Assembly (NCBI GenBank): GCA_008632985.1
Contig: QPGO01000259.1
Location: 57,413 to 77,412 of the forward strand
DNA from: Psammoneis japonica
Taxonomy: Eukaryota
Direction of reading: 5' to 3'
Length of the DNA stretch: 20,000 nt
The notes beneath the pieces are model-generated. The model saw only the letters and a program-made list of their open reading frames with translations. It had not been told where the DNA came from and did not search any database. This document shows, piece after piece, positions 1-20,000 of this stretch. How positions within the stretch are numbered: the first letter of the stretch is position 1; each line of letters begins with the position of its first letter. A program made the position numbers and the translations under genes.

Positions 1-797
1 ATGACGAAATGATTTTTTGTCGTACGCGTGGCTACCGTACAAACAGAAATCTACTCGATGACCAGAGGGTCACACTGGCAGATGATGCGAGGCAGCTGGA
101 GCCTGTCTGCTGCTGGTGCCATCACCCGCCTTTGAATTTCGGGACGTTTGTTTTGGTTGGAGCAGTGAGCAGTCTTTTGTGATTGATTTTCCTGCATTTG
201 GGCACTGGGCTTTCAGACTCAGGATGTTGCTGTTTTGTCTTTTGTTTTCATTTTTTGCGGCCGGCAGGGCTGTGGCTCATGACAAAAGCTGCGTCCTGCA
301 GCAAAGACTCAGCCTGCAGCAAGGGCGTGGAAGACTCCCACACCAAGGCACACACCCGCAGACATGTCATCCACAGATGCAAGGTCAACAAAAGACTGGG
401 TTGAAGCAAGGGCTCATTTCTTGCACAGGAGGCAAGAGTGCCACAAAAACAGGAGCAGCGAGTCTCCAGAGATTGAAGTGGTGGGTGGTGAGAGCCCTGG
501 TGCTCAAAGGAGCATCAAATGGAGGAAATGAGCTCTGCGTGCATTGTGATGCCAGAGCAAGTCAAAACAAGATGTGTGGCACAATGACAGATCTTGGCAG
601 CCAAGCACCATGTGGAACCTTGTGCTGCTGTGCTGCCTGTGACATGCATGTTTGCAATCATGTGATCCAATTGAAAACTTTTGACATCTGTTGTGTTTGC
701 TCACTTGCCAACATCTGAAGAGTGTGCTGGCACATGCAGATGTCACAAAAAAATGATTGTGGGGAGGCATGGCTGTGATTCAAAATGGGTCCTTGTG

Positions 798-885
798 ACA
801 GGTTCCAGCCCCGGGTGACGGGGTTCCATTTGACATTGGCCTGTGCAGCTCCATGTGCTGCCAGCTCTGCAGCACAAGAATTTGT
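798..885. mobile_element. Decayed terminus of the same TIR family (other end not identified)
   Basis: acaggttccagccccgggtg...tgacattggcc...agctctgcagcacaagaattt resembles 19891-19971. Preceded by cttgtg. Confidence 0.65.
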
Positions 886-2550
886 TTTTGACAGGTGTGT
901 TTGTCTTCAACATCTGAGCACAAACAACCACCAAGCATGTGGCACAACTGTGCACCTCAATGCTTGGCACAGCAATGTTTTGGTTGGCCTTGAAGCACCT
1001 GACTGGGCTGCAATCCTTTGTCCAACAAGAAAGAACAAATGCCAAAAATGCAGCAAAATGATGAAGTCCAAAACAGAAACTCTGTGCTCCGCTGATGCTC
1101 AGACTTGCTTGTCATTGACATGATCTCTGCACCAGCAGCAGACGGTGCTCAGGGCATGCCCTCCTTTCAGCAGCTCAGCATGCTGCCACTTGTTGTTCCA
1201 CAGAAACAACAAAAAGGAGCTTCGCTTCTGAGGAGCTGTGTTGTCAAGCGTGGCACCCAATTTTTGTTGGCTTCAAGCTGCAAAGCTGCATTGTGGTGTG
1301 TGATGGAATGAACTTGCCCCCATCCAAGGGGACAGCTTCCACCTGCAAAGTGGCTCTTGTCAAAAGACAAAGGCTTCAGCCACCGGATCAATCGGCAGAC
1401 GAGTTTTGGGTCACAGCAAAGAGTTGTTTTGGTTGCTTTGAGAGAGTTGCTTCTGTGGCAATTCAGACCACAACAATTCTCCTGGTCAACAACATTGCAA
1501 GAGCTCAAGCAAACAAACTGCTGGCACAAGTGGACAAGGCAAACTGAAAGCAGCTGCACCATTTTTGCAAATCCGCCTGCCCTGTGCTGTGGCCCAACAA
1601 CTGTGCTGCAAAATGACACAAAATTCCATCAAAGGTGTGCAGAAATGCGCGTGCATGTGACATGCAGCACATGAAAAAAGGCTCAACATTGCAGCCCAAT
1701 GCTGCAAGGTTCCACCATTTGTCTGGAGCAGTGTTGAAGAAAAATGCACTCACTGCCTGGCACACAAAATGCAGAGCTCACAATGCACAGAGTTGCACAT
1801 GCCTGCCTGTGTGTCATCCCTCCTGTTTGGCTTTGATGAGCTCAAATTTGCACAGGTGCTCTGAGATGGTGGCTGTGCATTTTTGCAAGTTTGGGCCAAA
1901 AAACAAGGGTTGCAGCAGCATCATTGCTTGTTCACAGCCCTGGATGAACAAGCTTGCCATGGTTTGAACATTTTTCACATCTGCTGCTGGGCTTGTGAAC
2001 AGGTTGTTGGGCAAAAGCACAGCTGCCTGCTGCAGGCACTTGCACACTTGAACTTGAGCAAGCCCCACTGTGGGCACTTGTGCAAGAGCAGGGTCATGCT
2101 GCTGGAAACCCACCCAGGGCTGAAGTGTGTGCCTGGAGCTGGCTTGTGTGCAATGGCCACACCCCACACACCACAAATCTTGTTCCCATGTGTGGTTGCT
2201 TTTGACCGATGGTGACCAGCTGGCAAAATGGAGCTGTTGCTCTTTTCATTTCAAAAGATCATGCAGTGGCAGAGGTGCATTGTGTGAATTTTTTTTGCAG
2301 AGCTGTGCCAAATTGTTTGCTTTTTTGTTGTTTCTTGTTTGGCGCTGATGCGCAAGCGGGAATCACTCCACTGCAGGTGCAGCAATGGTCAAATTTGTGG
2401 GCTGTCATCATGATCAAGGAGTTGATGAGTGGAGCCAAGAGGTCTGTCTTTCTGAATTTTTGCACTTTCCTTGCTTCAAAGGCTTGGAGACTTCATTTGT
2501 TTTTCCTGCATGCTCAAGCTTGCAAATGAAAAAACCTTCTCTGCAAAGTT

Positions 2551-2665
2551 CAGCCCTTTTGTTCCCAAGCTTGTTTTCCTCAATCAGCCTGTGGAAATGC
2601 ACAAGCATGATGCAGCCCCTTTGTTCCCAAGCTTGTTTTCCCCTCAATCAGCCAGTGGAAATGCA
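2551..2665 (+). repeat. Two-copy tandem duplication, about 62-bp period
   Basis: cagccc.tttgttcccaagcttgttttcc(cc)tcaatcagcc.gtggaaatgca at 2551-2601 and 2613-2665. Confidence 0.9.
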
Positions 2666-3255
2666 GTGTGATGTCAGAAGGACAGCTTGTTTGGGCTGAT
2701 TGTGAGCTGAGCAATGACAAGATTGACATCCTGTGTCACCAAAACAATGTGCAAAAATTTTGGGGAAGTGACCAAAAGACAATGACAAAAACCTTTCAAC
2801 ACATCATCAAGCCTGAGAATTTTGGGCAACAAAGAGCATGGGCTCAGTGCAAGAAGGAAGAAAGTCAGCACATTGCTTTTGTCAGCTTCTTTTGTTTGTG
2901 TCATGAGGAAGGATGGGTGGTTCTTTCAACAGCTGTTTTTTTTGTAAAAATGCAGCTCTCCCCCCCCCTCCAAAGCTGCTCACAGATTGTTGCTCATCGC
3001 AGCTGGGAAATGCGGTGCTGCTGGTTTTTCCACCCTGGCTGCATTGCACTCTCTCACACGATGACATGCTTTGTCACAGCAAAAATGTGCGCACACTTTG
3101 ACTCTTTTGTGCTGTGCAAGCTCAACATCTTTTTCTTTGGCCAGCAGCTTGAAAGCGCAAAAACACTGCAAAATGAAGTGCAGAGAGGGAAAAAAAAAGA
3201 ACACCCCCTTTGAGCAATCAGCAGAGAGAGCGGGGGGTGGCTGCTGGCACAGGGG

Positions 3256-3513
3256 GCCTGTTCCAGCTCCAGGTGCTCCGCGCGGGTTCGATTCCCATCA
3301 TTTGGAAATTTGTGCATTTGGCGCAATTGGCTTTTTCCAAATCCGTTTTTTGCCAAATCGAAGGGCAAGTGTGCACTTTACATGTGTTTTCGGGTGTACA
3401 CTCACCTTTCGATTTTCGAAACGATCAAAATTGAAGGAGCCAATTGCGCCAAACTGCACAGAAAATCGGCCTCTCGAGTGATGAAAAGCAGATCACCTGG
3501 AGCTGGAACAGGC
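3256..3513. mobile_element. MITE-like TIR element, 258 bp
   Basis: Perfect 20-bp TIR gcctgttccagctccaggtg / cacctggagctggaacaggc, flanked on both sides by cagggg (3250-3255 and 3514-3519). A second internal inverted pair: tgtgcatttggcgcaattggct / agccaattgcgccaaactgcaca. Confidence 0.88.
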
Positions 3514-5549
3514 CAGGGGGCTGCATTTCTCCTCCTCCCCAGTGCACCCCAGCCGCCCTCTCTGCACCCGCCCACTGCCACAAAGAGCCAAGGCACAATC
3601 ATCAGACAGCATGAAAGCCAAAGCTGAGTGGATTCCTGGGACTGGACAGCCCGGCGCGCCGTCCCAGTTGCCGCCAATGCGCCAGTCGTGCGAAATTTTA
3701 CAGCGATCATGATTGCGCAAGCATGGCATCAAGTGCGACTGCATCCCATGTCCTCACAGCTGCATCACAGATGCCATTTTGAGTCCTGGCCAAAAATTTT
3801 CCATTGAGTGGAACACACACATTTCTTTGAGCAATTGCGTTCTTGAACGGACAGGAAAAGGAAAGAAAATTTCATTCCAATCAAAATTGACACTGTTGGA
3901 CAAACACATTGGCAATGATGCACGTGGATTTGCCTGCTTGTCAACAAACTGCCCGCACATGCACTCAATGGCCAAGTGACGTTCTTTGATCATGCCATGC
4001 ATCAGAGATGAAACACCTGCACTCAGTTGTCCAACCTTCACATGAAGATCTGAGATGCAAACCGGGAGCAACCCGCCAGCACAAAAAACACGCCATGCTA
4101 CACTGCAACAACACCACATTGGGTGCCAAGCAATCCAAGACCGGCAAGCACGTGAAAGTTGACCCAACGGCAATCGGGCAGTCGTGTGTTGTGTGTTTTT
4201 GTTTGTGGGCGAGGCATTGTGCCAACAACAACAACAGCGAGATTGTTTCATCGTTGATCACTCCACCACAAAGAAGTGCCAATTATTTTCGTTGGTTGGC
4301 AGCAGCACATTTACGTGTGGAACCAGTTCTGCATGGTTTCCACACCGCAATTGTTCTGGGGAGAGTTGAAACATGACGAAAAGTGATTCTTGAATCTGAA
4401 GTGTTTTGAACAAAGCACAACAACCATGATGACAATGAAAACAACAACAACCATGATGCTCAAGTGTCTGCCATCTCTCTTGCTGTTGAACGCTTGCTTT
4501 GCATCTGCACAAGAAGCCCCTGCTCTTGGATGGTGTCTCAAATCCAAGCATTTTCTTGATGCCAGTGGCAGGAAGAACAACTGCTTTGGGCAGCCAGGGC
4601 AAGCTCAGCTTGTGTGGCTGCACCCAACAGGAGGGGTGGCAGTGCAACACATGAAAAAGGAGGCTGGGGCAGCTGATTGTCACATTGGCCAACAAACAAG
4701 AAAACAAAGTGTTGACACACAAAGAGCTGCTTGACAAACACCACCAAACTCAAGCCAGCCACCAAGGCAGCACACAACAACTGGAACAAAAGCACAAGAA
4801 GAACACTCCCCTTGACCTGTTCGGGGAGAGAAGTCACAAGTTTTCACAGGTTTCTGAGGACGCATGACGAATCTAATCAGAAAGGTCCCAAAACTGCGAT
4901 GCTTGAGTTTCAAAGAGCCACGCAAAATGAGAAACCCATGGAAACTTGCAACTTCTCTTCATGGGCAAGTCAAGGGGAGTGCAACCAAGCAGTTTGAACA
5001 CTCTGTCAGGTGAAATGTTCAAGTTTCCATCATCTGGGAGAGGGCTCAAGTTGGTGAGCCGACTTTGGCAATTTGTGTAGAAAACACACTGAGCTGTGCG
5101 TGCATGGAATCTGGCCCACTTTTGCACCCGCACCACCCCAAGGTGTGCGCACAATGAGCGCACAGCAGCGCAATGTCAGACAGAAGACAGTCTTGCATTT
5201 TTTGCAATTTGCGTGACAAATTGCCGTCGACGCCGATGATGATGACAATTTTCAGATGCTGACAGAGGACAACTTTGCAACAGGCACTTGATGCACTGAT
5301 CAACTGCACTGCGCAGAACACATGTGTGTGAAGAAAGTCCCCAGGGCAAACTCACAATCATTCGATGATCAAATGCGCAAAACGACGGTCAAAAAACAGA
5401 GCTCCTCATTGGTGTGACGTTTTGCGCTTTAATGGAGGTTGCTTGCAGGGACTTTCATGACTGAATGCATTCTCAAACACAACAAACTAAATGTCCACAA
5501 GGCGAGTCAGAATTGAAGCTGTGTCCCGCCTCAAGCTTCCGCATGCAAT

Positions 5550-5566
5550 GGGGGGGGGGGGGGGGG
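5550..5566 (+). repeat. Poly-G tract (17 nt)
   Basis: Directly visible homopolymer. Confidence 0.9.
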
Positions 5567-6402
5567 TCAAAATTGTCCATTTGTCACAGCACGTAGAATC
5601 TACATGGGTTCTGGCATTGACCTCATTGCAGGCACAGTCAGCCAACAACCCGACAATCACAGCGCACGCAGGGCCTGCGCAGGTCATGGTGTTGAACTTG
5701 CCATTGAGTCTTTTCAGCGCACAACCTGCGTGATCACGACTGCAACTTGTGGCAGCGTTTCCATTCTTGAACTGACTGTCGCAGTGGGATTTGCACCAGG
5801 TGCTGAGAAGCTGTGATTGGCAAGTGGGCTGTGATCCAAGAAGGAATCTGGAACCTTGAAGGGGGTGGGGTTTGGAGGCGGAACACACAACCAACTCAGA
5901 CTTGCCCAACAACAAAAGACTCTTGGACACGTCGCTGTCATCGCTGTCGTCACGACAATGCACCACCATCACATCGCCGATTGTTGGTGACAAGACGCGC
6001 AGTGTGCTGTGCGTTTCTCGTGCAGCAGAAAATCCTGAAAAATCAAATTGTCGTGCCTTTGCCCCTTCTTCTGCGATTGCCTTAAGAAGCTGTCAGCAGT
6101 GGCATGCACAAAAAAGCAATGAGCTGTTCCAAGACTGTGCTTGCCAGCGCACAAAGGATTCATCAGAGAACACTTTCTTGCACAAGCCAGTCGAAGACTG
6201 GGCTGAAAGAAGAGCAAAAGAGTGCGCCAAAAACAAAGGGCCAAGCAATCCAGCCATTTGTGAAAAAGCAAATGGCAGCATGTGTGACTTGCACACAAAG
6301 ATTTCAGATCTGATGTGGGCAACACTTTGGGAAAGAACTGCAAGTCCACAGCTCAAAACTTCAAGCTGGTTGTGGAAAGAGGTGCTGAGCCAATGCTTTG
6401 CA

Positions 6403-6422
6403 CCCCCCCCCCCCCCCCCCCC
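6403..6422 (+). repeat. Poly-C tract (20 nt) followed by A-runs
   Basis: Directly visible homopolymer. Confidence 0.9.
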
Positions 6423-6949
6423 AAAAAAAAGCTTAAAAAACAAACCTGAAGCTGCAAGCACCTGCAGCGCCAAACAAGGGTGGCACCACAGACAGCTGAG
6501 GCCAGCACAAAAAAGAAATGGAGCATGCAGACAGAGCTGAAAGACACTTGGCTCCTGTGAAAACTGCAGCCTTAGAGAGATGCTGATCTTTGCTGACTTT
6601 TCCATGACATGTTGGTCTTTCAGCATGCCTCCTGACCAACAATTGCTTTGTGGATGTCTGCACTGTCATTTTCTGCATCTTTGTTGTTTGGCTTTCTTGG
6701 AGTTAATTTTGGTGCCAGGAAGCCAACCAGAAAATTCTTGCCTGTGCAATGAGGAGGGCCGCCAGCGGAAGCTCATGACAGTCTGATCTTGGGGTGAGCA
6801 GACTCCTGGTGGGTGTCTTTGCTCCAAGAACTTTGTTGTTTGTCAGTTTTGCTTTGTTGTTTCTGGCGGTGATTTTGTTGTTTGCATCACCCAGGAGCAT
6901 AAAAAAAAAGGTTTTTTCTGTTGTTAAAAGGTTGGGTCATTTCCTGTTC

Positions 6950-7950
6950 AGCAAGCTCATGCAGTTGACAGTGCAGCACACTGTGTGTCGACTTGTCTCT
7001 GGTTGATCAATTGCGAGGGTTCCAATCACAATGGTGCCCAAAATCATCCAGAAGTGGCCCAAAGGCAAGTTCATGTCAGTGTCTTCTTTGCTGGTCTTGA
7101 CAAGACAAACCTCACGTGCCAAATTCAAAACACAACAGGAATCCAAGCAAAACCCAAGAGTTTGGTCTTGTCCACATCTTGGCTGAAACCAAGCAGAAAC
7201 ATCCCGCACACAAGCAGCGAGATGCCTGGCCACTTGGCGGATCCAAGCAGGTGCTTGTCAGCTTCTGCCGCTTGAGGCCCCACTTCTCACTGGCATTCTC
7301 TGTGTCTAGAAAGCACCAGATGCCTTTCAGTGCATTGCAAGCACCACAGATCAACATGACTGCATTGGCGCTGTCCAGGTTTTGAAGACAGGTGCACGCT
7401 GTGACAACTTGAGGTGCCAAGACCACGAGCACCTGGGCCACATTGGGGATTCCCAGTTTTTCTTCTTCATCATTCAGTCAGGATGCTGCGAACAACTTCT
7501 TCAATCACCAGGAACATCCCGCATCTGATGGCCATGTCAATGCTCTTGTCATGGACGAACATGAGGTGTGCAATGAAAGATGTCAAAAGGAAAAATGTCC
7601 ATTCCTTTCGGCAAACAAAGACACACTTGGGGGCAGGCTGCTTGAAGCCATGAGCCTCCATGGCCTTCTCTGTTCTGAGTGCACCAAGAACCTGAGCCGC
7701 TGGAAGGATTGTGCTGCTTGTCTTGGCCGCTGTGCTCGAATCAAGAGGTCCAGCCCCTCCACAATGGACAGAGAGTGCAGCAAAATGCGGAACAGTGGTG
7801 GCAGAGTCAAGAGGTCTGCCCCCTTTGTGAGGGAGTGCAACCAAACACAGAACAAAGGCCTTGTTTTGCATGAGGGTGCTCTTTTTGGCTGTGCACTCAA
7901 TTTGATGAGCACAGCAAGGCCGACAAGGACAGAAGAGAGTTTCATGGTTG
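6950..7950 (-). pseudogene. Possible decayed membrane-protein gene, family not identified
   Basis: Protein-like hydrophobic segments in minus frames (MKLSSVLVGLAVLIKL; LNDEEEKLGIPNVAQVLVVLAPQVVTA...NAVMLICGACNALKGIWCFLDTENASEKWGL), broken by stops and frameshifts. Confidence 0.3.
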
Positions 7951-8082
7951 GTTCTTTGCAGTTGAAAGTGCAAATGGGGATGATGACACAGTTTGCATCC
8001 CAAAAGATTTTTTGAAGAAATTTGTGGAGTGCGGCAGGTTCAAAGGTGTGCGCAAGAGCACAAGGTTGTGAGTCACATGGTG

Positions 8083-8225
8083 TGTCCACTGCAGTGACAT
8101 TCACAAGCTGGACCAGGACCAAACCAATCTGGCAGGAGTGGAGAGGGCTTTGCTGGTGCAGGCTTGCACTCTCCCAAGAAAATTCAGGCTGGACGGCAAG
8201 GGCCAGAGGGCGGGAAAGGTGGGAG
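8083..8225 (-). repeat. Split direct repeat B2 (3' end of the element)
   Basis: Direct copy of 8383-8556. Confidence 0.9.
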
Positions 8226-8229
8226 TGTC

Positions 8230-8365
8230 AAAAGCTGTCTGCTTTGACCCGCTGTTGTTGTCTCAAAAGAACAAGCAAGCTTCATTGGATGGGCAGCTCA
8301 TGCATTGCTGTGCATTCAATGGAGCCAGGAATCTTGCTTGGCACGTTGCTTGAGGCCAGCAGCTG
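8230..8365 (-). repeat. Split direct repeat A2
   Basis: Direct copy of 12489-12627, located between B1 and B2. Confidence 0.9.
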
Positions 8366-8382
8366 TTGCCACTTTTCTTGTT

Positions 8383-8556
8383 TGTCCACTGCAGCAATGT
8401 TTTCACAAGCTGGTGGACTGGGGCCAAACCAATCCAGGAGTGGAGAGTGTTTCACTGGCACAGGCTTGCACTCTCCCAAGAAAACCCAGGCTGGACGGCA
8501 AGGGCCTCCAGCTCCTCCAAAGGAGGTGCAAGTGAATTTGGGTGGGAGAGGTGGGA
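8383..8556 (-). repeat. Split direct repeat B1
   Basis: tgtccactgcag...ttcacaagctgg...ccaaaccaatc...caggagtggagag...caggcttgcactctcccaagaaaa..caggctggacggcaagggcc...ggg.ggga.aggtggga matches 8083-8225, with about 30 extra bp at 8507-8539. Confidence 0.9.
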
Positions 8557-8619
8557 CTGGCTGGCAGGCTGTGGCGCTCAAGGCATGTTGGGGGCAATGG
8601 GGACATCGTTGTTGGGGTG

Positions 8620-9480
8620 TGGAGTGCAAAGTTCCCACCAGCTGGCATGTGTTGTGCATGGCAGCATTTCATCAGAGTGCCAGCAGCCTGAGAGACAGAT
8701 GATGTCAGTGTCCACTTGGGCACACAGCAACCCCATGGCACCGGCGGCAAGAAGGCAGAGCACGCGGAGACATCAGATGGGTTGAAACCAAGGTTCTGGG
8801 GGCCAAGGGCAGTGACGGCAGTGTGGAGGATGGACATGATGTCAGCTCGGCTGACACGGTGCCATGCTCTGTCATGAAAGCATGTGGAGAGGGGGGTGTC
8901 TGTCAGCATGCTGTGGGTGCACAAATGCAACACTCGACATGTTGCTGCTTTAACTGGGCAAAGCTGGGGGTGGCCAGAGAGGCCCAGACCAATGACTTCA
9001 CCATCACACCATTCTTTTGGTTGGTGAATGTGAGGGTGGTGAATGTGGCAGCCACGAGCTGTGCGGTGGGCACCTGGAATAGATCAAGACACACACTGCC
9101 AGCGGAGAGATGCACGCTGGTGAGCTGGAAAGGGGTGGTGTCAGAAGGTGTGGCGGTGTGTTTGTCAGGGCGCAAAAGGAAGAAAAAGGCTGGAGCAATT
9201 GTGTCAGCGATCACCTGGGTGCCCGGGTGTTGGCTGAGGGCAGTGGTGGAGAGGATCCAATGCAAGTCGGCAACCAGCACAGGCTTGACGACTCTGTCTG
9301 GTGGAGGATCTTGCTTCTTGTGGCAATGGATTTGGTGGTTGAGCGGAAATCCAAACCCCCTTGTGGTGTGAGGTGCAGGTCCAGGGACCCCATTGCAGCA
9401 AACATTTGGCCAATGGACCACAGGGCATCTTCAGCAGTGTGTCCATGGATGGGATGGGGCCATGTGGTGCAAGGATGCTG
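8620..9480 (-). pseudogene. Tyrosine recombinase remnant of the Ngaro-like element
   Basis: EDALWSIGQMFAAMG...LDFR, KQDPPPDRVVKPV, AFFFLLRPDKHT (LLRPGEYT), LTFTNQKNGV, DVSACS/LAAGAMGLL (SARSLRAxGAMALL), DIICLSGCWHSDEML (IIRLxGRWRSDEMLRY). Frameshifted. Confidence 0.88.
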
Positions 9481-9639
9481 ATGTGGCATCAGTGGAGGCA
9501 GACTTGGAGGCAGAGGATGGGATCATCAATTTCAAGAAGGAGTGAATTGATGGCCACAGTGTGGCAGAAGTTGGTCTGTTTTTCCCAGTGGGTGTTGGTG
9601 GCGGAGGTGCGTGTGAAGTGGTGACTGTAAGGGTGACAG

Positions 9640-11575
9640 CTTGTTGCACAGCATGGAGGTCACAAAGGAGTGCAGTTTGGGTGGCAGGATCCACAAGCAC
9701 CGAGGTTTGTTCTGGGGACAACAAGAGTTAAAGTGGTGCAAAAATTTGGTGTCAGTGAGGGATTGCAACAAGCACAAGGCATCATCAGCGGCAGACGCAT
9801 TCCAGCTCCAGGTGGGACCTCGCACTGCTGAACTGTGACATCAACAGTTTTTGGATCATGTCGCATGTTGTGCACATGCATTTCCACATGTGACATTCTA
9901 CGAAATTGTTTCATGCTCCCTGTTTTGCGAAGCCAAAGGCTTTCCATTTTCGACATTTGTGAGAATGAAAATGCACTGGGCATGTTCTTCAATCATGTCT
10001 GAAGAATGCACCCGGGCAAACTGTCAATGATGTGCTCCAAGTGTGAAGGAGGAGATGCGTTCACAAAATTGCCTCTTTTTCTGTTGGTGATCATGTGCAT
10101 TTTCATTGCAGCACAAATTCACTGCAGAGCTTGCACGCAGAATTCTACGGGCCCAATGTCACACAGAGTCCGCCCAGGACTGGAACCCGTCGGCAGTGTT
10201 GACCGGGCATGGCAGGTGGTCATGCAGTGTGAGGTGACAATGGAAACGTTGGTGGCAGGCTTGGTGATGAAGAAGGGGCGCACGGATTCTTGCGGCAGTT
10301 GAGGATCCTTTGCATTGCCAGAACATGGTGCCTGAGCAGTCGGTGCATTGGAGGTGTGTGCATTCCCACATGTCGAAGCAGTTGGATGCTGCACATGTTT
10401 GCACTGTGCTTCCTGCAAGCTCCAGATTGGTGTTGGTCGTGGTTCCGGCGGGGTTGTCACAGGTGGCGAGGTCAGATGTGATGGCTTTGGGGAAGGGCAT
10501 TTGCCATGCTGTCAGACCTGATGAGGTTTGACAGTGGGCACATGCAGAAGGGCCAAACTTGAGTTTAGTTGCCCGTGGCACGGTGACTGCATTGGTTGGC
10601 AGCAGCACTCCTCCTCCTGTGCCATGCCCGGTGGCATCATGGCATCCATGTGCCATGGGTTTGAGCGGGACCAGTTCTTGGATGCAAACTGGACGAAGTT
10701 CGAGGGTGGCGCAGAGGTCTCTGAAGTTGTCCACAATTGCGTGGAAGGTGGGTGTGAGATGTGCGCGGGAGTCAGGTCTGTGTGGTGTGGTGCAGCAGTT
10801 CCTGGAGTTCAGAAAACAGGCCACGCAATCCAGGGATTGCTGTTGACAGTGAGCACAGCTCACCAAGTGGGTGGTGGCAGTCGGAAGTGGTGGTGTGATT
10901 GTGCTGGCAGGGGAAGTCCTGATGCAGTGCAGCACAGAGTTGTGCAAGGCAACAGTTGGTGAGGTGCAGTGTCATGGCATGGGTGTCGATCAGCCAACCC
11001 AGCACCTCTTTTTGTGTTGACCAGGTTGCATTGCCTTTGCACAATTTCTTTGCTGAGATGGGCTCTTGATGTTGTTCAGTGTCATTGGCATTGAGCGGTT
11101 GAAAGATTTTGTTGATGGCTGTCATGATTGTTCACAGAACATTGAGTTGGGAGTGCTGTGGCCCTTGTGCAGCACCGATGCAGTTGTCTGCATGTGTGTC
11201 AACATGCCACAGATGTTCGCGGCATTTGTGATGCAGGTGTGGGTCCGTTGTGGTTGGCAGTGGCACAGCTGAGGCTGGATCTCTGGGCAGCATTGTGCAC
11301 AAGGGCAGGTGATGGCCGCCAGCTGTGCCTGTTCCAGGTGGCGCAGCGGTGCAGCAGGAGTTGGTTGGCCAGGTCGGCACCAGTCTTGGTTGCAACACAA
11401 AATGCTTGTGGTGAGTTCTTCCAGCCCATGGGAAGTGTGGCTGGGATTGCCGCTGGGGGTGGTTTGCTTGGGATCAATGGGGGTGCCACAACCAATGTCG
11501 GTGCTTGGTCTGACATGATGGAGAGACAACAAAAACCATCAGACATGTTGATCTTCATCAAATGCACATGTCCTC
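9640..11575 (-). pseudogene. Reverse transcriptase-RNase H remnant of the Ngaro-like element (interrupted at 9795-10190)
   Basis: HLMKINMSDGFCCL (YLxKxDxSDGFYR), LPMGWKNSPQAFC, HVDTHADNCIG (YVDD mutated to HADN at 11183-11194), EPISAKKLCKGNATWSTQKEVLGWLIDT, LGELCSLSTAIPGLRGLFS, GCHDATGHGTGGG (DASG motif), TNTNLELAG, PVNT/AADDALCL. Confidence 0.9.
9795..10190. mobile_element. MITE-like TIR element, 396 bp, nested in the RNase H region
   Basis: Imperfect TIR acgcattccagctccaggtgggac / gtccgcccaggactggaacccgt, flanked by cggcag at 9789-9794 and 10191-10196. Removing it with one copy of the duplication restores the in-frame PVNTAADDA. Confidence 0.88.
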
Positions 11576-11839
11576 CAACAGTGGATGGCACTGGCTGACT
11601 TGATTGGCTGCAGTGGCTGCTCTGTGAATTCCCACAAAAGCTGGCTTGGGCGCCAATGACATTTGCGGCAATGGGTTCACACAGGCAAAGGGTGCATGCA
11701 TGGACGTGCGGGCATGTGGACTTTGACCGCCTTGGGAGTCTGTGCTGCAATTTCCAGATGTGGCCCTTCTGGCATGGTGGTGATTGCCGCCAACATGGCA
11801 TTGTTGGTCAATGTGTGCATGCCGTTTGGTGCCAAATTC

Positions 11840-12476
11840 ATCAACGCATTTGGGAACTTAGCAATTTGGCATTGGTTGCAAGCCAGGTCCCCCAATGATC
11901 CCACAAGTGAGACCAACCCATGGTTGTGGTTGTCGCACTGCTGTGCAGTGGGGCAGGTTGAAATGTGGTGGGACACTTGAATGTGCCCTGCATGGTTGGC
12001 GGGTCCTGGCACTTGGCAGTGCATGAGGACAGGCAGGGGTGCATCATGCTCAGAGGCCGCTGCAAGCCTGTCAAACAATGCCCCCGGATTGTGTCAGGAC
12101 TGGCCATTTTGAAGTCGGCAGTTGTGTGGAAATCAGTGCAGGTGCATGGGACGCGTGGTGGCTGGAGGTGTCCTGGAGGCTGTGCTTGTCCAGCGGTGCC
12201 TGCCTGAGGCGGTGGCACCGGTTGACCTTGTGGTTGAGCAGCTGCTCCTTGTTGTGCTGCTGGCAGCCCTTGCGGGGCCTGTTGCAGTGGTGCTTGTGGT
12301 TGTGGTGCCTGTTGTGCCAGCGGCACTGGGTGTGCAGGTTGCAGGTGGTGGGGGCGCGACGCCTTGTGCCAGCGGCTGGCTGTGCCCCTTGTTGGGGCAG
12401 TTGGTTTGCCCCTTGGTTCAACATGTTGTGTGTCATTCTCACACAAGTGGACAACAGTGGCGGAGGTGTCTTGCAT
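11840..12476 (-). pseudogene. Probable gag-like ORF1 remnant (Pro/Gln/Ala-rich)
   Basis: Lies between repeat A1 and the RT. Low-complexity PQA tract followed by a Cys/His-containing segment (HPCLSSCTAKC). Assigned mainly by position. Confidence 0.4.
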
Positions 12477-12488
12477 TGAACCAATGGC

Positions 12489-12627
12489 AAAAAGCTGTCT
12501 GCTTCGACTTGCTGTTGTTGTGTCTCAAAAGAACAAGTGAGCTTCATTGGACAGGCAGCTCCCGCGCAACTGTGCATTCAATGGAATTGGGATCTCACTT
12601 GGTGCATTGCTCAAGGCCAGTCACTGC
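12489..12627 (-). repeat. Split direct repeat A1 (5' end of the element)
   Basis: aaaagctgtctgcttcgacttgctgttgttg...tctcaaaagaacaag..agcttcattgga..ggcagctc...ctgtgcattcaatgga...aggccag matches 8230-8365 in the same orientation. Confidence 0.9.
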
Positions 12628-13221
12628 AAATGAGGCATGTGTCCAGTCACACAGGCCTGGTGGCTCCGAGTTTGTGAAAACAAAAAGAGAGGAAAAGAAG
12701 GAGGAGAGGAGAAAACGCCATGTGTTCAACTCGCACGTACGACGGCCATGCATTTTTGCAACATTGATGCTGCTGCAACAAGAACAAACCAACCATGACA
12801 CAGCAACAACCGATGTTTGATCTTGCCACCAAACCTCATCCTGCCAAAAATGTGGGTGCATGACATCCACATTTTGCTGTGACAAGTGTGTCAATAGCAA
12901 GAGACGTGAGAGAGAGAGCCAAAAAATGGACAACAAAAAAGCTCCTTCCTGCAGCTGTGCTGCTGCCCAGACTCCAGATTTTCACAACTTTCACAGCAAC
13001 AGCCAATGTTCTGTTTTCTCTGCCAAACCTTTCCTGCCAAAACTGCCAATGAGCAGCGTGCTGTGCTGTTTCTCTTTGGCAAGTGCGCCAGTGAAAAGAG
13101 AGGCACCGCAAGGGGGAAACCCAAACAGGCCAGGCAAACACAAAGGCCCTTTGCACGGCTTTGCCACAATGCTCAGGCTCTCAGCTCTCACAGCTTGTGC
13201 AGGTGTCAGGTTCTTCTGTCG

Positions 13222-13773
13222 ACGTGTTCCAGTCCCAGGTGACGCACAAAACGACAATCGGATTTTGAACATAATTTGTGCATGTTTTAGTGCATGTGGC
13301 ATTTTAACAAAAATGCTTAGGCCGGATTGACTTTCACAGGCTTGTAGAGTGTGAACATTTAAATAGTTTTTTGAGGGGTGTTCAAATCCTCATGGGAAAT
13401 GTATCACAAACTTCCTCAGTGGACTCTGTGCTGATTGTACGTCAGTAGATTTACACTGAAATTTTTTTGTAGGTAGAAAACCTGCCAAGCAGCATCGTAG
13501 AAAGATGTGTTTAGGCAACATCCAAGGTGACGGCAATATTTTCGCCGAAAATCATCCGTTGTGTTACGAATCTTTTAACGCAATGGAAAACATAGATGGC
13601 ACAATGACAATGACATTGCAACACTCACACGAGTCTTGTTAGTGTTGCAAAACATCCACATTTGTATAAATCTATGCTTTTGGTGGTGAAAGTTCGATCG
13701 TAAGTTAGGGACCGCGCAAAAATCGCGCAAATGTTTTTGTGCACGATTTGGTTCACGTGCGGCTGGAACACGT
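13222..13773. mobile_element. MITE-like TIR element, 552 bp, interior largely retains TpA
   Basis: TIR acgtgttccagtcccaggtga / tcacgtgcggctggaacacgt, flanks ctgtcg (13216-13221) and ctgtca (13774-13779). Confidence 0.82.
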
Positions 13774-13830
13774 CTGTCACACTGTGCCTGCAGCAAGCAG
13801 CAGTGCCAAGGCTGCTTGGCAGCCCAGCAG

Positions 13831-14150
13831 CCAGCTCTTTGTGAAAACATGGTTGCAAAAGGAAAGGATCCACCTGTTGCAACACAAGAGACAAGCAATC
13901 AAGAGTGCATTTTCCTGTGGTTTGGTGTCAAAGGAAATGTGCTTGTTTGTGGTGCTGTGCTGGCAAGACCAGCTGTGGGGTGCACTGCCCAGCCAGCCAC
14001 TGCCACAGCGGGGCCCCCCTCTCATGATGTTGGCATTCTTGGGCCAGATCATGCAGCTGTGTCACTGCAGTCAAATGGCATTTCTGCCAGCTCTGCATGA
14101 AAAAATGATTGCAAAAGGAAAGGAGCCATCTGCAGTGCAAGAGACAAACA
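13831..14150 (+). repeat. Diverged direct repeat (about 65-bp cores, 256 bp apart)
   Basis: ccagctctttgtgaaaacatggttgcaaaaggaaaggatccacctg...caagagacaagca (13831-13897) vs ccagctctgcatgaaaaaatgattgcaaaaggaaaggagccatctg...caagagacaaaca (14087-14150). Confidence 0.8.
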
Positions 14151-15122
14151 GCCAAGCTTCCTGTGGTGGTGGGCTGCTTGAAGCGCTGCAGCAGCTGTGC
14201 TCTGTGCTGGCCATCCAACAGAGATGAAAGGACCACGGTGTTGGCTGCAAGATGAAAGGACTTTGTTGGTTCCAACTGGCACCAAACAAGTGCAGGAAAT
14301 TTCCCTTTCATCCAAAGAAATTTGGGGCTTTGAGAGGAGCCATCATGAGCCAAAACCCCGCTCATGCTCACATCTTGATTTCCCCCTCATTGGCTTGTTG
14401 AACAAAGGAAACAAAGAGTCTTTCCTCTTTTGTTTTGTTGCACAATGTGTGCCAGATTTGCCACACCAACTTGAGCTTTTGTGGGCTTGCTTGGAGCAGA
14501 TTGCACTTGAAGAGACCATGGAAGCACATCTTTTGTCCTTGACAAAGTGCCCCCCCAATGGTGTCTGCCTCACTCATTGAGTGATGCACTCAATGAGAGG
14601 TGTTTTGGCAGCCACAGGCTCTGGACAAATCAACTTCTAGATGAAAGGATTGTGACAGTTGCAACTGCGCATTGAGCTGCCAATTAAATTTTCTTTTCTA
14701 ATTTCCTTGTCTTTCCTTGTCTGGGGAAACTCAGCACCAAATGAGGAATCCCCTGTGATCAAAAACCCCAAAGCTGATGCAGTGACAGGCATGTTGACAA
14801 TGACTCCATCTGTGGCATTGCCATCAAATTTGTGCTGGAAAACCATGCATGTTGTTTCTGCTTGTTGCTGTCAAAATGGAATTGTGTCTTGTCAAATTCT
14901 GCACAAACCCTGGCACATTTCCTGCACAGCCCACAAAGAGCCACCTGCACAGCTGGATGATTGCCTTGCTTCAGCCCAACAAGCAATGTGAAGCATGCTT
15001 TTGTGTTTTTTGGGATGTTTTTGGCAAAGGGGAATGTCCGAAATGCCTCCACTCTCCCAAGATTTGCTGCCAGCACTCCTTGAGTTGAGCGAGTTCCTTT
15101 TCCAATGACTGACAGCAGCACA

Positions 15123-16299
15123 ATGAGCATGTCACAATTGCCGTCACTTCCTCAGATTGTTCATGCAGAGGGAGCTCCAATTCATTTGTGCCCGGAAGAA
15201 ACAGAACCTCAGGCCTTGGCACAGGTGAGGCTCTTGGCAGAGCCCTCTTCACGCTGACTGATTGCGTGGCAGTCATGCCTGCATTTGTCCCAACGCCATT
15301 GGGGCAGATGTGTTGGGCACGGAATGGAGGCTGTGGATGTTCATGGGCTTTACAAGGAACACACTTTGACCACCTTTTTGCAACATCAAACAAAGCTTGA
15401 TGGAACACAAGAGGTGTTGGATGAGATTGCATCTGTGGTGGAGCCAACACATTGTCCAAAAGAACAGCTGATGATGCTGCCTCGTGTGATGGATCAGCTG
15501 GGCACACCAGGAGGGAATCACTTTTTGAAAGCAGTTTGTGAAGCAGAGAATGAGCAAGTTTGGGTCATGCCACATTCTGGAAGTCACAGTGTTGGAAATT
15601 GAGTTGCTCAACGCTGTGATGAGGTGGCAAAGAACATGTTGCAGCAACAAGGTGTTGATGCAAAACATTTGAATGGAATCAACCACATGTCAGTTCAATT
15701 GCAAAAAGGAGGAGATCATTTGAGAGACACACAGTGGTGTCAACAACATGCATTTCATGGTTGAAAGGCCATGAAAAGCATCATGCTCAACATTGTGGGG
15801 AAGGTGACAGGACGTGAAGCTGACATGTCTCAGGCAGTCAATGTCCACCACAGTTGCCGCCAATGTGAAGATTGTGGTGGCGGGTGCAAGTTGTGTGTGA
15901 CTCACAAAGGAGCAACCTTGGCATGAGATGGAGAGATGGGTGCAATTCCAGGTGGCAGCATGGGTGTTGGTTCCTGCATTGTGTGAGAAAAAGGAAACAT
16001 TGAAAGCTGGAGCTTGTCATCACATGGTGCAGGAAGAAGACTTTCTAGAACAAAGGCACACGGCGACATCTCACAAGAAGAGTTTGAAGCACCCATGTGT
16101 GGAATCACATGTGATGCTCATCCAAGTGTCAAGGATGAATCGCCTCAAGCCTGCAAGGATCTCACTGAAGTCATGCAACAATGCGAGTCTTTGACAGGCA
16201 TTGTTCATCGGGCTGCTTCCTTTCATCAATGTCAAGGGCTTCGAAAAGAAGCTTCCAAAGAAGTGTGGCAGACCGGCTGGCAAAAAGAATGAGAAATAG
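15123..16299 (+). pseudogene. rtcB: Bacterial-type RtcB RNA 2',3'-cyclic phosphate/5'-OH ligase pseudogene
   Basis: Motifs readable across frameshifts: EPQALAQVRLLAE, CVAVMP, CPNAIGADV-GHGM (PxAVGVDIGCGM), QLGTPGGNHFL (QLGTLGGGNHF), VWVMPHSGSHSVGN (MLHSGSRxVGN), VTHKGA (VTRKGA), GEMGAIPGGSMGVGSCIV, SSHGAGRRLSRTKA, KDESPQACKDL (DExPxAYKD), LLPFINVKG, ending in TAG at 16297-16299. It has in-frame TGA stops, several frameshifts and appears to lack the D-x-H-x-G-x-G segment after VMP. The start is approximate. Confidence 0.9.
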
Positions 16300-16583
16300 A
16301 AACAAAGTGGCAATGTGCAGTTACAAATCTGCTGCTTTCTCAAAGTGACAAACGAGACGTTTGAACTTGGATGATGCTCTTCAAAGCAATTGCTCTGCTC
16401 CTGCGTCCAAGCTTGTACTGAGCTGCTTGCAGCAACGAACGCGGCCAAGGACGGTATGGAGGTGTGCGGTGTGCTTTGGGAAAATGTCAGAGCGAGAAGC
16501 ATGAGTGTACCATGCATGATAAACATGTAACCCATGCTAAAAATCTCAATGGGTAGATTTCCATGAGACTAATAGATCTATAG

Positions 16584-18455
16584 CTATTTACTCAGAGCAA
16601 GCTTTCGGGTCATCTTCAATCTTTCAAGCTCGCAATTTCGACATGAGCACTTTCTTGAACCCTCGATTTCTCCCTTTTCATGATCTTTCTGCTGGCATTG
16701 CAAGAGTTTGGTCACTGCTGCTTCAATCCAAAATGGCGCAGCTGCAAGCCAGAAGCGAGCCCAAACAGCTCCACCCCAAGGGTTCCATGTCAGCACAACG
16801 TTCATTAACAGAGTCAGCGGGCCAAGTATCACAAAGAGCAGAAGGTCGATTGAGTTTTGGCAGTCTTCATTGGCCAAAGCGTGCTCGGGAACGACGAACC
16901 ACAAATTTGTCGCTGTATCAATGCAAGTCGTCCATTCGACAACGGACAAGGCAGAGAAGACCGCCAATGAAACCATGTTGGCAATGATCTGAACGTCAAT
17001 TACAGTGAGGTTGCCATCTGATGTCTGGACAAACTTGGATGACACTAGAAGCAATGATGAGAAAGCGACGTAGGCTGTGACAACCACAGAAGCCTTCGTT
17101 GCCACCTGATCAGCCCCGAAAAAGAGAGTTACCGTCGTGATCAGCGTCAGAATCATAAGAGGCAGTTGGAAGCGTATTTGATAAAAGCGTGGATTGCGAA
17201 ACCCCATAACATCAATTTGGGGATTGGTTCCGAACAAAAAGTGTTTTGATCTGTGAGTCAGCACGAACTCGAATCCATTATGCCGTATAATAGGAGGGCA
17301 ATATAAAGGGTCCTTCCACGTCAAATCTAGATCTCGCTCGTGAGAGTTTACAACGAATGCAATGTTATCCTGAATGAAATCGAAAGGAAAGTAGATGATT
17401 GCATCACTGGGTAGAGAGCGAGTAAGTTCTCCAATCATATTCTTGCGAGCCCCTGCTCCAAAGCCAGCAACGCGGACAAAGCCGTCACCGGGCTGGGTTT
17501 GGTCATCGGGCGACACCACCTTTCTTGGTAGAGGAAGGTTTTCGATTTCGACGTAGCCTTCGGGCCGGCGGACAAAGCCTATTTTCTCCCATGTTCGATC
17601 ATCCGCTGACTCCCAACAGTCACTAGGCTTGCAACGATGCTCCAGTATGAATTGGGTTCCAAGAGAGATGCCGTCAGCAGCTTCGGCAGGACTAACTGTG
17701 CTCTGTGTCTTTCTCCATCGAACCTCCAGGATTGATGATACACGTAATGAGTAGACGTCATCCCATGAAAGCGCCGTGGTTCGTGCAAGTCGTATCCCTC
17801 CCTCTTGCCAGTCGCCAACATCCAAGCCGGGTGACCATACAATATCTTCGGTGACAGGGTGCCTCGACTTGGCAGGAAAGGTGTCAGCTCTATGGTTTGG
17901 CAGTTTCATCAGTCGCTTGTCCTCCCAGTGCAGTGTGACCCCGACCAGGAGCTTGAGGCTGTGGCCCGCTATAAGGTATTCCAGATCCAGGTACTCAACT
18001 TCAATCTGAAGGTGGTGCGTGGTGGGATTGCGCGTCGAAAGTGGTCCACCGGATGAACTTCCTCTTGACGCTTTGGCAGCGGTCAAGTTCCGAAGTGCAT
18101 GCTCATACTCTGTTGCAAAGACCGTGGTCAAAGAAAGCGGCGAGCACAATGCCAGTCGACGCGACAAGGTTCTTTCCACGACGTCGTCTTGGGTTGCCAG
18201 GCACAGCACAAACTCGTCACCCCCTGCTCTCAGTACTTCGAGAATGCCCAGGTCTTCAGATTCCTTGAGCATCAACAGGAACTCTACCAGTTCTTCAAGA
18301 AAACTCGTCGCCGCAGAGTAGCCAAACATTGAGTTGTAGGATCGAAAGTAATTGACATCCAGCAGCGCAAAGCAACGCGTTGCTTCAGGAAACTTATTGG
18401 CCTTGAATTCATTCTCAATGAGCGAGCAACGAGGCAGTCTACTTAGCTTCGACAT
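16584..18455 (-). CDS. GGDEF-domain / pentameric ligand-gated ion channel (Cys-less Pro-loop receptor) fusion protein, about 623 aa
   Basis: Only long ORF with normal TA/CG content and Tyr usage. The track start at 18512 is TTG; the first ATG is at 18455 and the stop is TAG at 16584-16586. N-terminus: LSRLP...ALLDVNYFRSYNSMFGYSAATSFL...LRAGGDEFVLCL...AAKASRG (GGDEF fold; GGDEF motif at 18210-18224). Then pLGIC hallmarks: LHWEDKRL, IVWSPGL, YFPFDFIQ (Pro-loop, FPFD at 17379-17390), pre-M1 RNPRFY, four hydrophobic helices, LTVID before M3 and ID...P...N in M4. Confidence 0.88.
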   Translation of the reverse strand: MSKLSRLPRCSLIENEFKANKFPEATRCFALLDVNYFRSYNSMFGYSAATSFLEELVEFLLMLKESEDLGILEVLRAGGDEFVLCLATQDDVVERTLSRRLALCSPLSLTTVFATEYEHALRNLTAAKASRGSSSGGPLSTRNPTTHHLQIEVEYLDLEYLIAGHSLKLLVGVTLHWEDKRLMKLPNHRADTFPAKSRHPVTEDIVWSPGLDVGDWQEGGIRLARTTALSWDDVYSLRVSSILEVRWRKTQSTVSPAEAADGISLGTQFILEHRCKPSDCWESADDRTWEKIGFVRRPEGYVEIENLPLPRKVVSPDDQTQPGDGFVRVAGFGAGARKNMIGELTRSLPSDAIIYFPFDFIQDNIAFVVNSHERDLDLTWKDPLYCPPIIRHNGFEFVLTHRSKHFLFGTNPQIDVMGFRNPRFYQIRFQLPLMILTLITTVTLFFGADQVATKASVVVTAYVAFSSLLLVSSKFVQTSDGNLTVIDVQIIANMVSLAVFSALSVVEWTTCIDTATNLWFVVPEHALANEDCQNSIDLLLFVILGPLTLLMNVVLTWNPWGGAVWARFWLAAAPFWIEAAVTKLLQCQQKDHEKGEIEGSRKCSCRNCELERLKMTRKLALSK

Positions 18456-19890: not shown

Positions 19891-20000
19891 ACGCGTTCCA
19901 GCCCTAGGTGGGACTCCTTGTGACATTGGGCCCGTAGAATTCTACGTGCGAGCTCCGTAGTACGAGAATTTAATTAATGGACATGTTTATCTTCACATCA
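19891..20000. mobile_element. Left end of a little-mutated copy of the same TIR family (runs off the window)
   Basis: acgcgttccagccctaggtgggactccttgtgacattgggcccgtagaattctacgtgcgagctccgtagt aligns with the reverse complement of about 10115-10190. Preceded by cttttg. Confidence 0.8.

Follow-up and report, generated by a model that had tools for sequence, protein, structure and literature searches.

A 16-kb tract almost free of TpA beside an intact gene: probable TpA-specific mutation and CpG decay of silent DNA

Described hypermutation systems and the present tract

To our knowledge, regional, dinucleotide-specific hypermutation as a genome defense was known in print only for fungi, in the form of repeat-induced point mutation (RIP), until a single preprint of 2026. 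That preprint, which is unreviewed, describes TpA-specific hypermutation of integrated viral DNA in Bigelowiella natans (Mettrop et al., bioRxiv 10.64898/2026.01.13.699255, April 2026). According to its main text, 231 of 302 nuclear point mutations in mutation-accumulation lines fell in insertions of a giant virus (186 kb) and a virophage (25 kb); 230 of these 231 were A>G or T>C, all stated to lie on TpA. The rate was approximately 6e-7 per site per generation, and only some lines showed it. The B. natans genome is reported to hold 124 clusters of at least three 1-kb windows that are poor in TpA and rich in CpA+TpG, and its TpA-poor coding sequences (CDS) to be enriched in reverse transcriptase (RT) and DDE domains. 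An ADAT2-like deaminase is proposed, and the preference of ADAR for a 5' U is likened to TpA (bioRxiv 10.64898/2026.01.13.699255). Here, we analyze a tract with a similar footprint that fills most of a 20,000-nucleotide window of contig QPGO01000259.1 (positions 57,413 to 77,412; "the window" is this whole stretch, and its own numbering is used throughout). An earlier interpretation from the letters alone (the sequence-only reading) had proposed a regional TpA-to-TpG/CpA mutator at this locus and had added that no described pathway removes TpA regionally. The addition has been overtaken by the measurements in B. natans; full-text searches found that preprint and no other description of TpA-removing hypermutation.

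As far as the main text of the preprint describes the B. natans insertions, they and the present tract are alike in showing A:T>G:C change at TpA only, giving TpG or CpA, over kilobase-scale regions, which are non-host or selfish DNA in B. natans and may be so here. Both form runs of 1-kb windows in which TpA is scarce and CpA+TpG abundant, and RT-bearing sequences are found among the TpA-poor set in each. The cluster thresholds of the preprint (observed/expected ratio [obs/exp] of TA ≤0.43 with CA+TG ≥1.52; the rho formula is our own reading of it) are passed here in 16 consecutive windows. The two differ in degree, with a TA frequency of 0.0037 here, which is near saturation, versus 0.033 in the nucleocytoplasmic large DNA virus (NCLDV) region reported for B. 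natans. They also differ in target: a retroelement, other repeats, and a cellular-type copy of RtcB were hit here, and no viral genes were found in the tract by Pfam searches of its open reading frames (ORFs) or by comparison with viral RtcB. CpG decay runs alongside TpA loss here, whereas the main text of the preprint does not mention CpG. A literature search on cytosine methylation in B. natans yielded no relevant paper. B. natans averages 45% G+C, 159-bp exons, and 7.8 introns per gene (PMC12730881, Table 1). The window, at approximately 48–50% G+C and with an uninterrupted 1.95-kb gene, fits these tabulated averages poorly, which is weak evidence for a different host (PMC12730881).

Fungal RIP (Neurospora and others) likewise produces regional, near-saturating, dinucleotide-specific transitions with sharp edges beside intact genes, and likewise destroys selfish DNA and duplicated genes. 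Its polarity is the reverse, since RIP turns CpA into TpA and the tract shows TA>CA/TG. RIP is usually called at TpA/ApT above 0.89 and (CpA+TpG)/(ApC+GpT) below 1.03. The tract gives 0.074 and 1.92, the opposite extreme, and with this polarity a fungal RIP footprint was rejected. Unlike RIP, the process also left high-copy segments unmutated. Deamination of 5-methylcytosine (5mC) in methylated transposons matches the loss of CpG in the tract (obs/exp 0.32, with 0.04–0.64 per 500 nt, versus 0.84 outside) but explains the CpG half only and cannot remove TpA. Hypermutation by APOBEC3 (on complementary DNA [cDNA]) or ADAR (on double-stranded RNA) in animals is comparable in that editing restricts selfish nucleic acids. 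These enzymes act before integration, on single-stranded cDNA or RNA, and leave strand-coordinated clusters, whereas in the tract resident double-stranded DNA was hit on both strands and there are no strand runs.

TpA loss and the direction of change

Positions 61–16295 contain 60 TpA (obs/exp 0.06), compared with a mean of 1005.5 (sd 23.1, minimum 936) in 1000 mononucleotide shuffles, which bears out the proposal that TpA is almost eliminated over 16 kb. One island of 461 nt (13260–13720) accounts for 25 of the 60; the remaining 35 are spread over 15,774 bases, and the longest TA-free gaps measure 2893, 1644, and 1293 nt. TpG and CpA are in excess (obs/exp 1.73 and 1.84; 1885 TG and 1730 CA), AA and TT are enriched (1.29 and 1.27), and AT stands at 0.81. 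The rest of the window (16296–20000) has a TA obs/exp of 0.37 and a CG obs/exp of 0.84. Every one of the sixteen 1-kb windows of 1–16000 has a rho of at most 0.35 for TA and at least 1.59 for CA+TG, and window 19001–20000 likewise passes both thresholds (0.17 and 1.57). None of 650 control 1-kb windows does so; these came from 80 unrelated metagenome loci (the best 80 of 587 from the RtcB search described below), reused for composition only.

The missing dinucleotides are balanced by the gained ones. Per kilobase, the tract has 2.2 TA and 19.8 CG, compared with 29.9 and 49.4 in the spared segment to its right (Table 1), so that TA+CG is lower by 57 and TG+CA higher by 70. The total of pyrimidine-purine steps is nearly equal in the two (246 in the tract versus 234), as conversion of TA and CG to TG/CA predicts. 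Ordinary CpG decay in the same tract feeds the same TG/CA excess. The loss of TpA is uniform along the tract and that of CpG is patchy, and the two processes are therefore separable.

Stop trinucleotides in the six frames of 61–16295 number 46 for TAA, 33 for TAG, and 702 for TGA. The near absence of TAA and TAG gives rise to many long, spurious ORFs in the tract (the 20-kb window has 150 ORFs of at least 75 amino acids), and translations without Tyr blind profile searches, as happened with Pfam on the RT remnant described below. In practice, such tracts will throw up spurious ORFs while profile searches miss the genes they contain. Among the 35 surviving TA outside the island, 22 have a 5' T or a 3' A, compared with 32 of 81 in the spared segment (p = 0.03), with TTAA as the most frequent context (8). 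This could mean that TTA/TAA is hit less readily, or else that new TA have arisen at these sites.

Two dead genes in the tract allowed the changes to be polarized against intact homologs. The first is a full-length, intronless copy of RtcB, read in frame 3 to approximately 16212 and then in frame 1 to a TAG stop at 16297–16299, with in-frame TGA stops. Some homologs align from 15033, and Pfam recognizes RtcB in ORF 15987–16289 (E = 3.3e-13). The copy resembles cellular-type homologs, and its nearest proteins come from marine metagenomes, Logan assemblies, and one MMETSP transcriptome. No close bacterial RtcB was seen among the best 80 of 587 metagenome loci (≤43% identity, bacterial-type, without eukaryotic relatives or other mutated copies), nor a close viral RtcB among the best 80 of 569 viral loci (≤43% identity), so that these loci hold no sign that the copy is of viral origin. 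Conserved columns were defined as those conserved in at least 80% of at least 15 homologs. The pseudogene keeps 156 of these 218 residues. Of the Tyr, only 1 of 11 is kept (six are now Cys, encoded by TGY, three are His, encoded by CAY, and one is Leu), compared with 155 of 207 for the remaining residues (Fisher p = 1.7e-5). Three of the 9 Arg columns are unchanged, and the six that differ now read CAC, TGA, or TGC. His (10/10), Lys (5/5), Phe (3/3), Trp (3/3), and Gly (24/27) are kept entirely or nearly so.

By parsimony, the 62 mismatched RtcB columns hold 82 base changes, of which 21 are TA>TG, 8 TA>CA, 9 CG>TG, and 4 CG>CA; the remainder comprises 22 transitions of other kinds and 18 transversions. 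The base 5' of an A>G change is T in 21 of 29 cases (A, 4; G, 2; C, 2), the base 3' of a T>C change is A in 8 of 12 (G, 3; T, 1), and the base 3' of a C>T change is G in 9 of 13. These neighbor-base tallies were used in place of a test of which dinucleotide explains most mismatches (TA 23, AT 17, and AC 15 of 62), which is confounded because the A of TA also lies in AT or AC. Where Ile has become Val or Thr has become Ala, the codon follows one that ends in T, which is TA>TG across the codon border. The excess of TA>TG over TA>CA is largely a detection bias, since T>C at third codon positions is silent. Identity to the best homologs rises from 0.63–0.65 to 0.75–0.78 when only TA- and CG-type changes are allowed. 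The motif readings proposed from sequence alone were confirmed for RtcB: GTLG reads GTPG (codon 15456, CCA), MLHS reads MPHS (codon 15570, CCA), and AYKD reads ACKD (codon 16152, TGC).

The second dead gene is a retroelement remnant on the minus strand. ORF 11202–11807 (minus) matches 512 proteins at E ≤1e-3 among 1.84 billion representatives and carries the motif LPMGWKNSPQAF, which we take to be RT-like. Residues 184–831 of P0200 (857 amino acids, the closest long homolog) align to 11573>9336 in three frames, with 318 of 642 residues identical. The family is a divergent RT. Weak RVT_1 matches of 14–20 bits were obtained in seven of eight intact homologs at a lenient cutoff (the Pfam cutoff is 29.6 bits); ten RT-family homologs gave no Pfam match at E ≤1e-5, and Pfam found none in the copy in the window, stop-read-through translations included. 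In the catalytic region, P0200 reads YVDIYVDDFCGAAQG and the window reads HVDTHADNCIGAAQG; YVDIYVDDFCG of P0200 has become HVDTHADNCIG. The alignment to intact P0200 thus upholds the proposal that YVDD now reads HADN (11183–11194, minus). None of 11 Tyr is kept in the remnant (His, 5; Cys, 3; Phe, 3), and Arg is kept at 9 of 63 positions, with changes that include 15 to Cys, 9 to His, 7 to Gln, 1 to Trp, and 1 to a stop. CpG decay can be polarized in both dead genes, where Arg CGN has become TGN or CAN, in-frame TGA stops included. Pooled over the two, 1 of 22 Tyr is kept, compared with 8 of 16 in the live gene next to the tract (p = 0.002). A further example from the sequence-only reading, a recombinase EYT that reads KHT, was not confirmed: the tract contains four KHT tripeptides, none of them inside a recognizable recombinase.

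Over 8001–13000, which covers the retroelement remnant (sense strand minus), G+C skew ranges from +0.12 to +0.26, and there are up to 22% more TG than CA. This may be the native strand composition of the element or a strand bias in which partner of TA or CG was hit; the RtcB region has no comparable TG/CA strand bias. Four RT-family proteins (P0082, P0100, P0125, and P0136; 104–283 amino acids) among the 150 representatives listed are free of Tyr, compared with a median Tyr share of 2.0% in the set. These proteins may have been translated from copies in other public data sets whose TpA was erased in a similar way.

Repeats show that the changes were made after the copies separated. The direct repeats flanking the retroelement remnant (8230–8359 and 12490–12620) are 80% identical over 132 columns and differ by five TG<->CA doublets and five CG-versus-TG/CA differences. 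In all, repeat pairs with both copies inside the tract have 12 such doublets (5, 5, and 2). Each doublet is one ancestral TA or CG resolved in opposite ways, and the copies were therefore mutated separately, as resident DNA, which argues against an edited RNA intermediate as the source. A repeat copy inside the tract (10121–10191) differs from its partner outside (19890–19961) at 11 positions; the outside copy has TA at three and CG at three where the inside copy has TG/CA. The repeats of the window are few and short, and these counts are small. The order of TG and CA along the tract has no strand runs (runs test, z = −1.27), although other complementary pairs do show compositional runs (e.g., AC/GT, z = −7.4); the TG/CA test is diluted by native and CpG-derived TG/CA. 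The absence of strand runs accords better with many independent hits, each at a single site and on either strand, than with a few processive bursts along one strand.

A TpA-directed process and its alternatives

We consider it probable that the tract records real TpA-specific A:T>G:C mutation, together with CpG decay, of resident silent DNA. The tract would be old, silent, non-genic DNA (the retroelement remnant, other repeats, and the dead RtcB copy) that two context-specific transition processes have rewritten since its arrival at the present site. The first would change A:T to G:C strictly at 5'-TpA-3', leaving TG or CA according to the strand hit, and would have run almost to saturation. 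The second would be ordinary methylcytosine-type decay of CpG to TpG/CpA. These sequence comparisons support change from TA to TG/CA, a strict TpA context, confinement to a region, and an adjacent active gene left untouched, and the regional mutator that had been proposed keeps its direction, context, and confinement when changes are polarized against intact homologs. The agent would be an enzyme that acts on DNA, most likely an adenine deaminase that converts the A of TpA to hypoxanthine, which is copied as G. It would hit sites singly, on either strand, where chromatin is marked silent, and would be kept out of transcribed genes. The adenine-deaminase step, taken alone, is a tentative choice to which we give rather less than even weight. 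That all Tyr codons and the active site of RT are lost may suggest a defense role.

Several observations weigh against this reading or limit it. The highest-copy segments are unmutated, which weakens any repeat-triggered model and fits a younger insert equally well. A>G on one strand looks the same as T>C on its complement. RtcB also bears the marks of plain pseudogene drift, with 18 transversions and 22 transitions outside the TA and CG types. In the RT remnant, 158 columns conserved among many homologs have 18 CG-type versus 6 TA-type changes; CpG decay is the larger contributor there, and only three of these columns are conserved Tyr (none kept). The sequencing run used to check the assembly excludes an assembly quirk, but the assembly may have been built from that run, which therefore does not supply a second platform. 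Finally, that the process is the same in kind as that of B. natans, with a shared pathway, is an analogy, not a demonstrated identity.

The same footprint could arise by other chemistry. If the thymine of TpA were modified (by a TET/JBP-type enzyme, to 5-hydroxymethyluracil [5hmU] or further) and then mispaired with G or was misrepaired, the result would be T>C. Since TpA is its own complement, the TG/CA outcomes observed are exactly those that T>C on one strand would produce. Several protist lineages have thymine hydroxylases, and dinoflagellate 5hmU has been reported to favor TpA. Nothing in the window favors T over A as the target, however, and clean long contigs argue against a persistent misread modified base. 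The only proposal in print, as far as the B. natans preprint sets it out, is the ADAT2-like adenine deaminase, itself a candidate only. We regard a thymine target as unlikely, though it is among the more serious competitors.

Equally unlikely, in our estimate, is a homology-triggered, RIP-like process in which duplicated sequence is recognized and mutated over its duplicated length, with TpA as the target instead of CpA. The tract consists of repeats and a gene copy, and its boundary is no more than 32 bases from where the RtcB CDS ends, as expected if the copied gene were the mutated unit. The 3' end of the neighboring gene would lie at the same edge, however, and exclusion by transcription explains that edge equally well. 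Summed contig depth reaches 14,918 in bin 13341–14007, compared with approximately 56 for unique DNA, and the island at 13260–13720 that belongs to this high-copy element keeps both TA (obs/exp 0.58) and CG (0.81). Positions 19630–20000, at a summed depth of approximately 38,000, keep TA and CG as well. (By this measure, the very high-copy bins of the window are 2669–4002, 9339–10672, 12674–14007, and 19344–20000.) Copy number by itself is thus not the trigger, as the segments with most copies were left unmutated, and the main target in B. natans, as the preprint presents it, is single-copy. The proposal that the mutator acts on silenced or repeated DNA is thus weakened in its second half by these two segments. 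The cue may be chromatin state or age instead. A younger age is the simplest account of both segments; the island is probably a younger insertion, and its survival would be compatible with an episodic or past process.

A third explanation carries RNA editing into DNA: ADAR-like A-to-I hyperediting of double-stranded retroelement RNA, followed by reverse transcription and integration. The tract holds a retroelement, its RtcB copy is intronless, and a 5' U is the preference of ADARs. Those enzymes accept a 5' A too, however, and ApA is enriched in the tract. The depletion is uniform over the whole 16 kb and not only over retro-copied units, and TpA removal is approximately 94–97% complete. The two strands were hit about equally (1885 TG and 1730 CA), and the lack of strand runs and the 12 doublets between in-tract repeats led us to reject ADAR/APOBEC-type editing before integration. 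In B. natans, according to the preprint, the process arose in a resident single-copy viral insertion during culture. RNA editing is largely refuted, and we hold it to be very improbable.

A technical artifact, in which TA is misread as TG/CA through a modified base or faulty polishing, is slightly less credible still. The sequence was found in one public sample of one study, and these may be the assembly's own data. The check relied on k-mer contigs of one sequencing run (X1), which covered all 30 bins of the window. Clean contigs at the unique depth of approximately 56 extend over 14977–18620 (3644 nt, 18 differing letters), 11042–12320 (1280 nt, 10 differences), and 188–1106 (919 nt, 4 differences). 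The first of these crosses the tract edge unbroken, at the same depth as the flanking unique gene. Were TpA symmetrically modified, reads of the two strands would disagree, CA in one and TG in the other, and such contigs would break. Among the differences to other contigs, transitions prevail (A>G 168, G>A 194, C>T 181, and T>C 183, with 189 transversions in all). The amino acid changes in the tract are coherent with fixed substitutions and stand alongside the CpG decay, stops, and frame shifts typical of a pseudogene. An artifact is therefore highly improbable.

That no special mutator was at work, the composition reflecting ancestral low-TA foreign DNA, GC-biased gene conversion, or selection against TA, could draw on the host's own gene being already lowish in TA (obs/exp 0.44) but is already refuted by the polarized spectra, unless the homolog-based polarity is wrong, and is the least probable of all: TG/CA states at conserved Tyr, Ile, Leu, and Thr positions are derived, no frame of the tract is coding, none of the 650 control windows reaches its composition, and no viral RtcB among the best 80 of 569 viral loci is close to its copy. 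GC-biased gene conversion in particular, which the sequence-only reading had set up as a rival in which T:A to C:G change is equal in all contexts, was rejected: A>G is bound to a preceding T, and it is TA alone (0.06) that is nearly lost, with AA, TT, and AT at 1.29, 1.27, and 0.81.

The tract offers independent, sequence-level evidence of the end state of a TpA-directed process, and if the host is not Bigelowiella, the phenomenon is broader than reported. It goes beyond the preprint in having a retroelement and a cellular-type gene copy as targets, and not only viral insertions; in its coincidence with CpG decay, which hints at a shared silent-chromatin cue; in an active gene that was spared, with an edge resolved to 32 bases; and in a probably younger high-copy insert that was untouched. 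A wider reading is possible, although we would put it somewhat below an even chance: that this is a lineage other than Bigelowiella and that TpA hypermutation is a widespread, RIP-like genome defense of marine protists, coupled to cytosine-methylated silent chromatin. It would hit transposons, stray cellular gene copies, and viruses, would run to completion, and would stop within a few tens of bases of transcription units. If this were true, every Tyr codon, the YxDD center of RT, and two of the three stop codons would be removed from its targets. A natural TpA-specific DNA A:T>G:C editor would also interest base-editing research.

Tract edges, the spared gene, and other features

The right edge of the tract lies at the stop codon of the RtcB pseudogene. 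The last inferred TA>TG change is a Tyr>Cys codon at 16264–16266, where the Tyr (of KKY) is invariant in 12 of 12 aligned homologs, and the first TA is the TAG stop at 16297; together, these resolve the edge to 32 bases. It falls where the copied RtcB ends and also where the neighboring transcript would be expected to have its 3' end, and either may set it. On the left, the last TA is at 52. Positions 1–60 have normal TA (4) and high CpG (6; obs/exp 2.3), and the left edge is thus within the window, near 53–60.

The spared segment consists of an intact gene with approximately 290 nt of 3' flank and 470–550 nt of 5' flank, and looks like a whole transcription unit between two mutated blocks. 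TA in the gene had been called normal; at an obs/exp of 0.44 in ORF 16587–18536 (CG, 0.87), it is better described as low-normal, although it is seven times the tract value. The encoded protein is 53% identical over 622 amino acids to its best homolog, P0001. In the alignment, which serves as a control at a divergence similar to that of the dead genes, 327 of 597 residues are identical, 8 of 16 Tyr are kept (one changed to His and none to Cys), and 20 of 37 Arg are kept. Its GGDEF match lies exactly at the Pfam cutoff (23.8 bits).

Table 1. Features of the window
Feature	Positions	Strand	Basis
TpA-erased tract, CpG-poor, TpG/CpA-rich	61..16296		Composition counts, shuffles, 1-kb windows
Direct repeat flanking the retroelement remnant; possibly LTR-like (long terminal repeat) or a split repeat	8230..8359	+	Partner 12490–12620
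Partner of direct repeat 8230–8359	12490..12620	+	Repeat alignment
Retroelement polyprotein remnant (RT and downstream domain), three frames	9336..11573	-	Alignment of P0200
High-copy repeat copy inside the tract	10121..10191	+	Partner 19890–19961 (-), outside the tract
RT catalytic motif, now HADN where the intact homolog has YVDD	11183..11194	-	CATGCAGACAAC; alignment to P0200
TA- and CG-normal island in the tract, part of a very high-copy element	13260..13720		25 TA and 14 CG in 461 nt
Full-length intronless RtcB (RNA ligase) pseudogene	15147..16299	+	tblastn with 24 homologs, best E 1e-132
Spared segment, ordinary TA and CpG	16297..19005		TA positions
Intact single-exon GGDEF-domain gene, membrane-spanning C-terminal part	16584..18455	-	ORF 16587–18536; start 18455 presumed from first Met
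Second TA-free block, far side of the gene	19005..19630		625-nt TA-free gap; outside the coordinates of the sequence-only reading

The neighboring protein has an N-terminal GGDEF-like domain and a hydrophobic C-terminal half, an unusual combination for an apparently eukaryotic genome, and only two relatives (53% and 39% identity) were retrieved in a word-based search. Atlas searches for GGDEF and RtcB gave bacterial or viral clusters only. Elsewhere in the window, Pfam on 149 stop-to-stop ORFs of at least 75 amino acids recognized RtcB only, apart from three subthreshold matches at chance level. Rfam gave no matches, a tRNA search no genes, and a tandem-repeat search no repeats over the window. 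Three close inverted repeats, at 3317–3453, 4804–4981, and 19330–19451, have arms of 41–60 nt that are 72–88% complementary and lie 17–74 nt apart. The last of these is inside the second TA-free block, and all three are possibly hairpin-forming ends or MITE-like (miniature inverted-repeat transposable element) elements.

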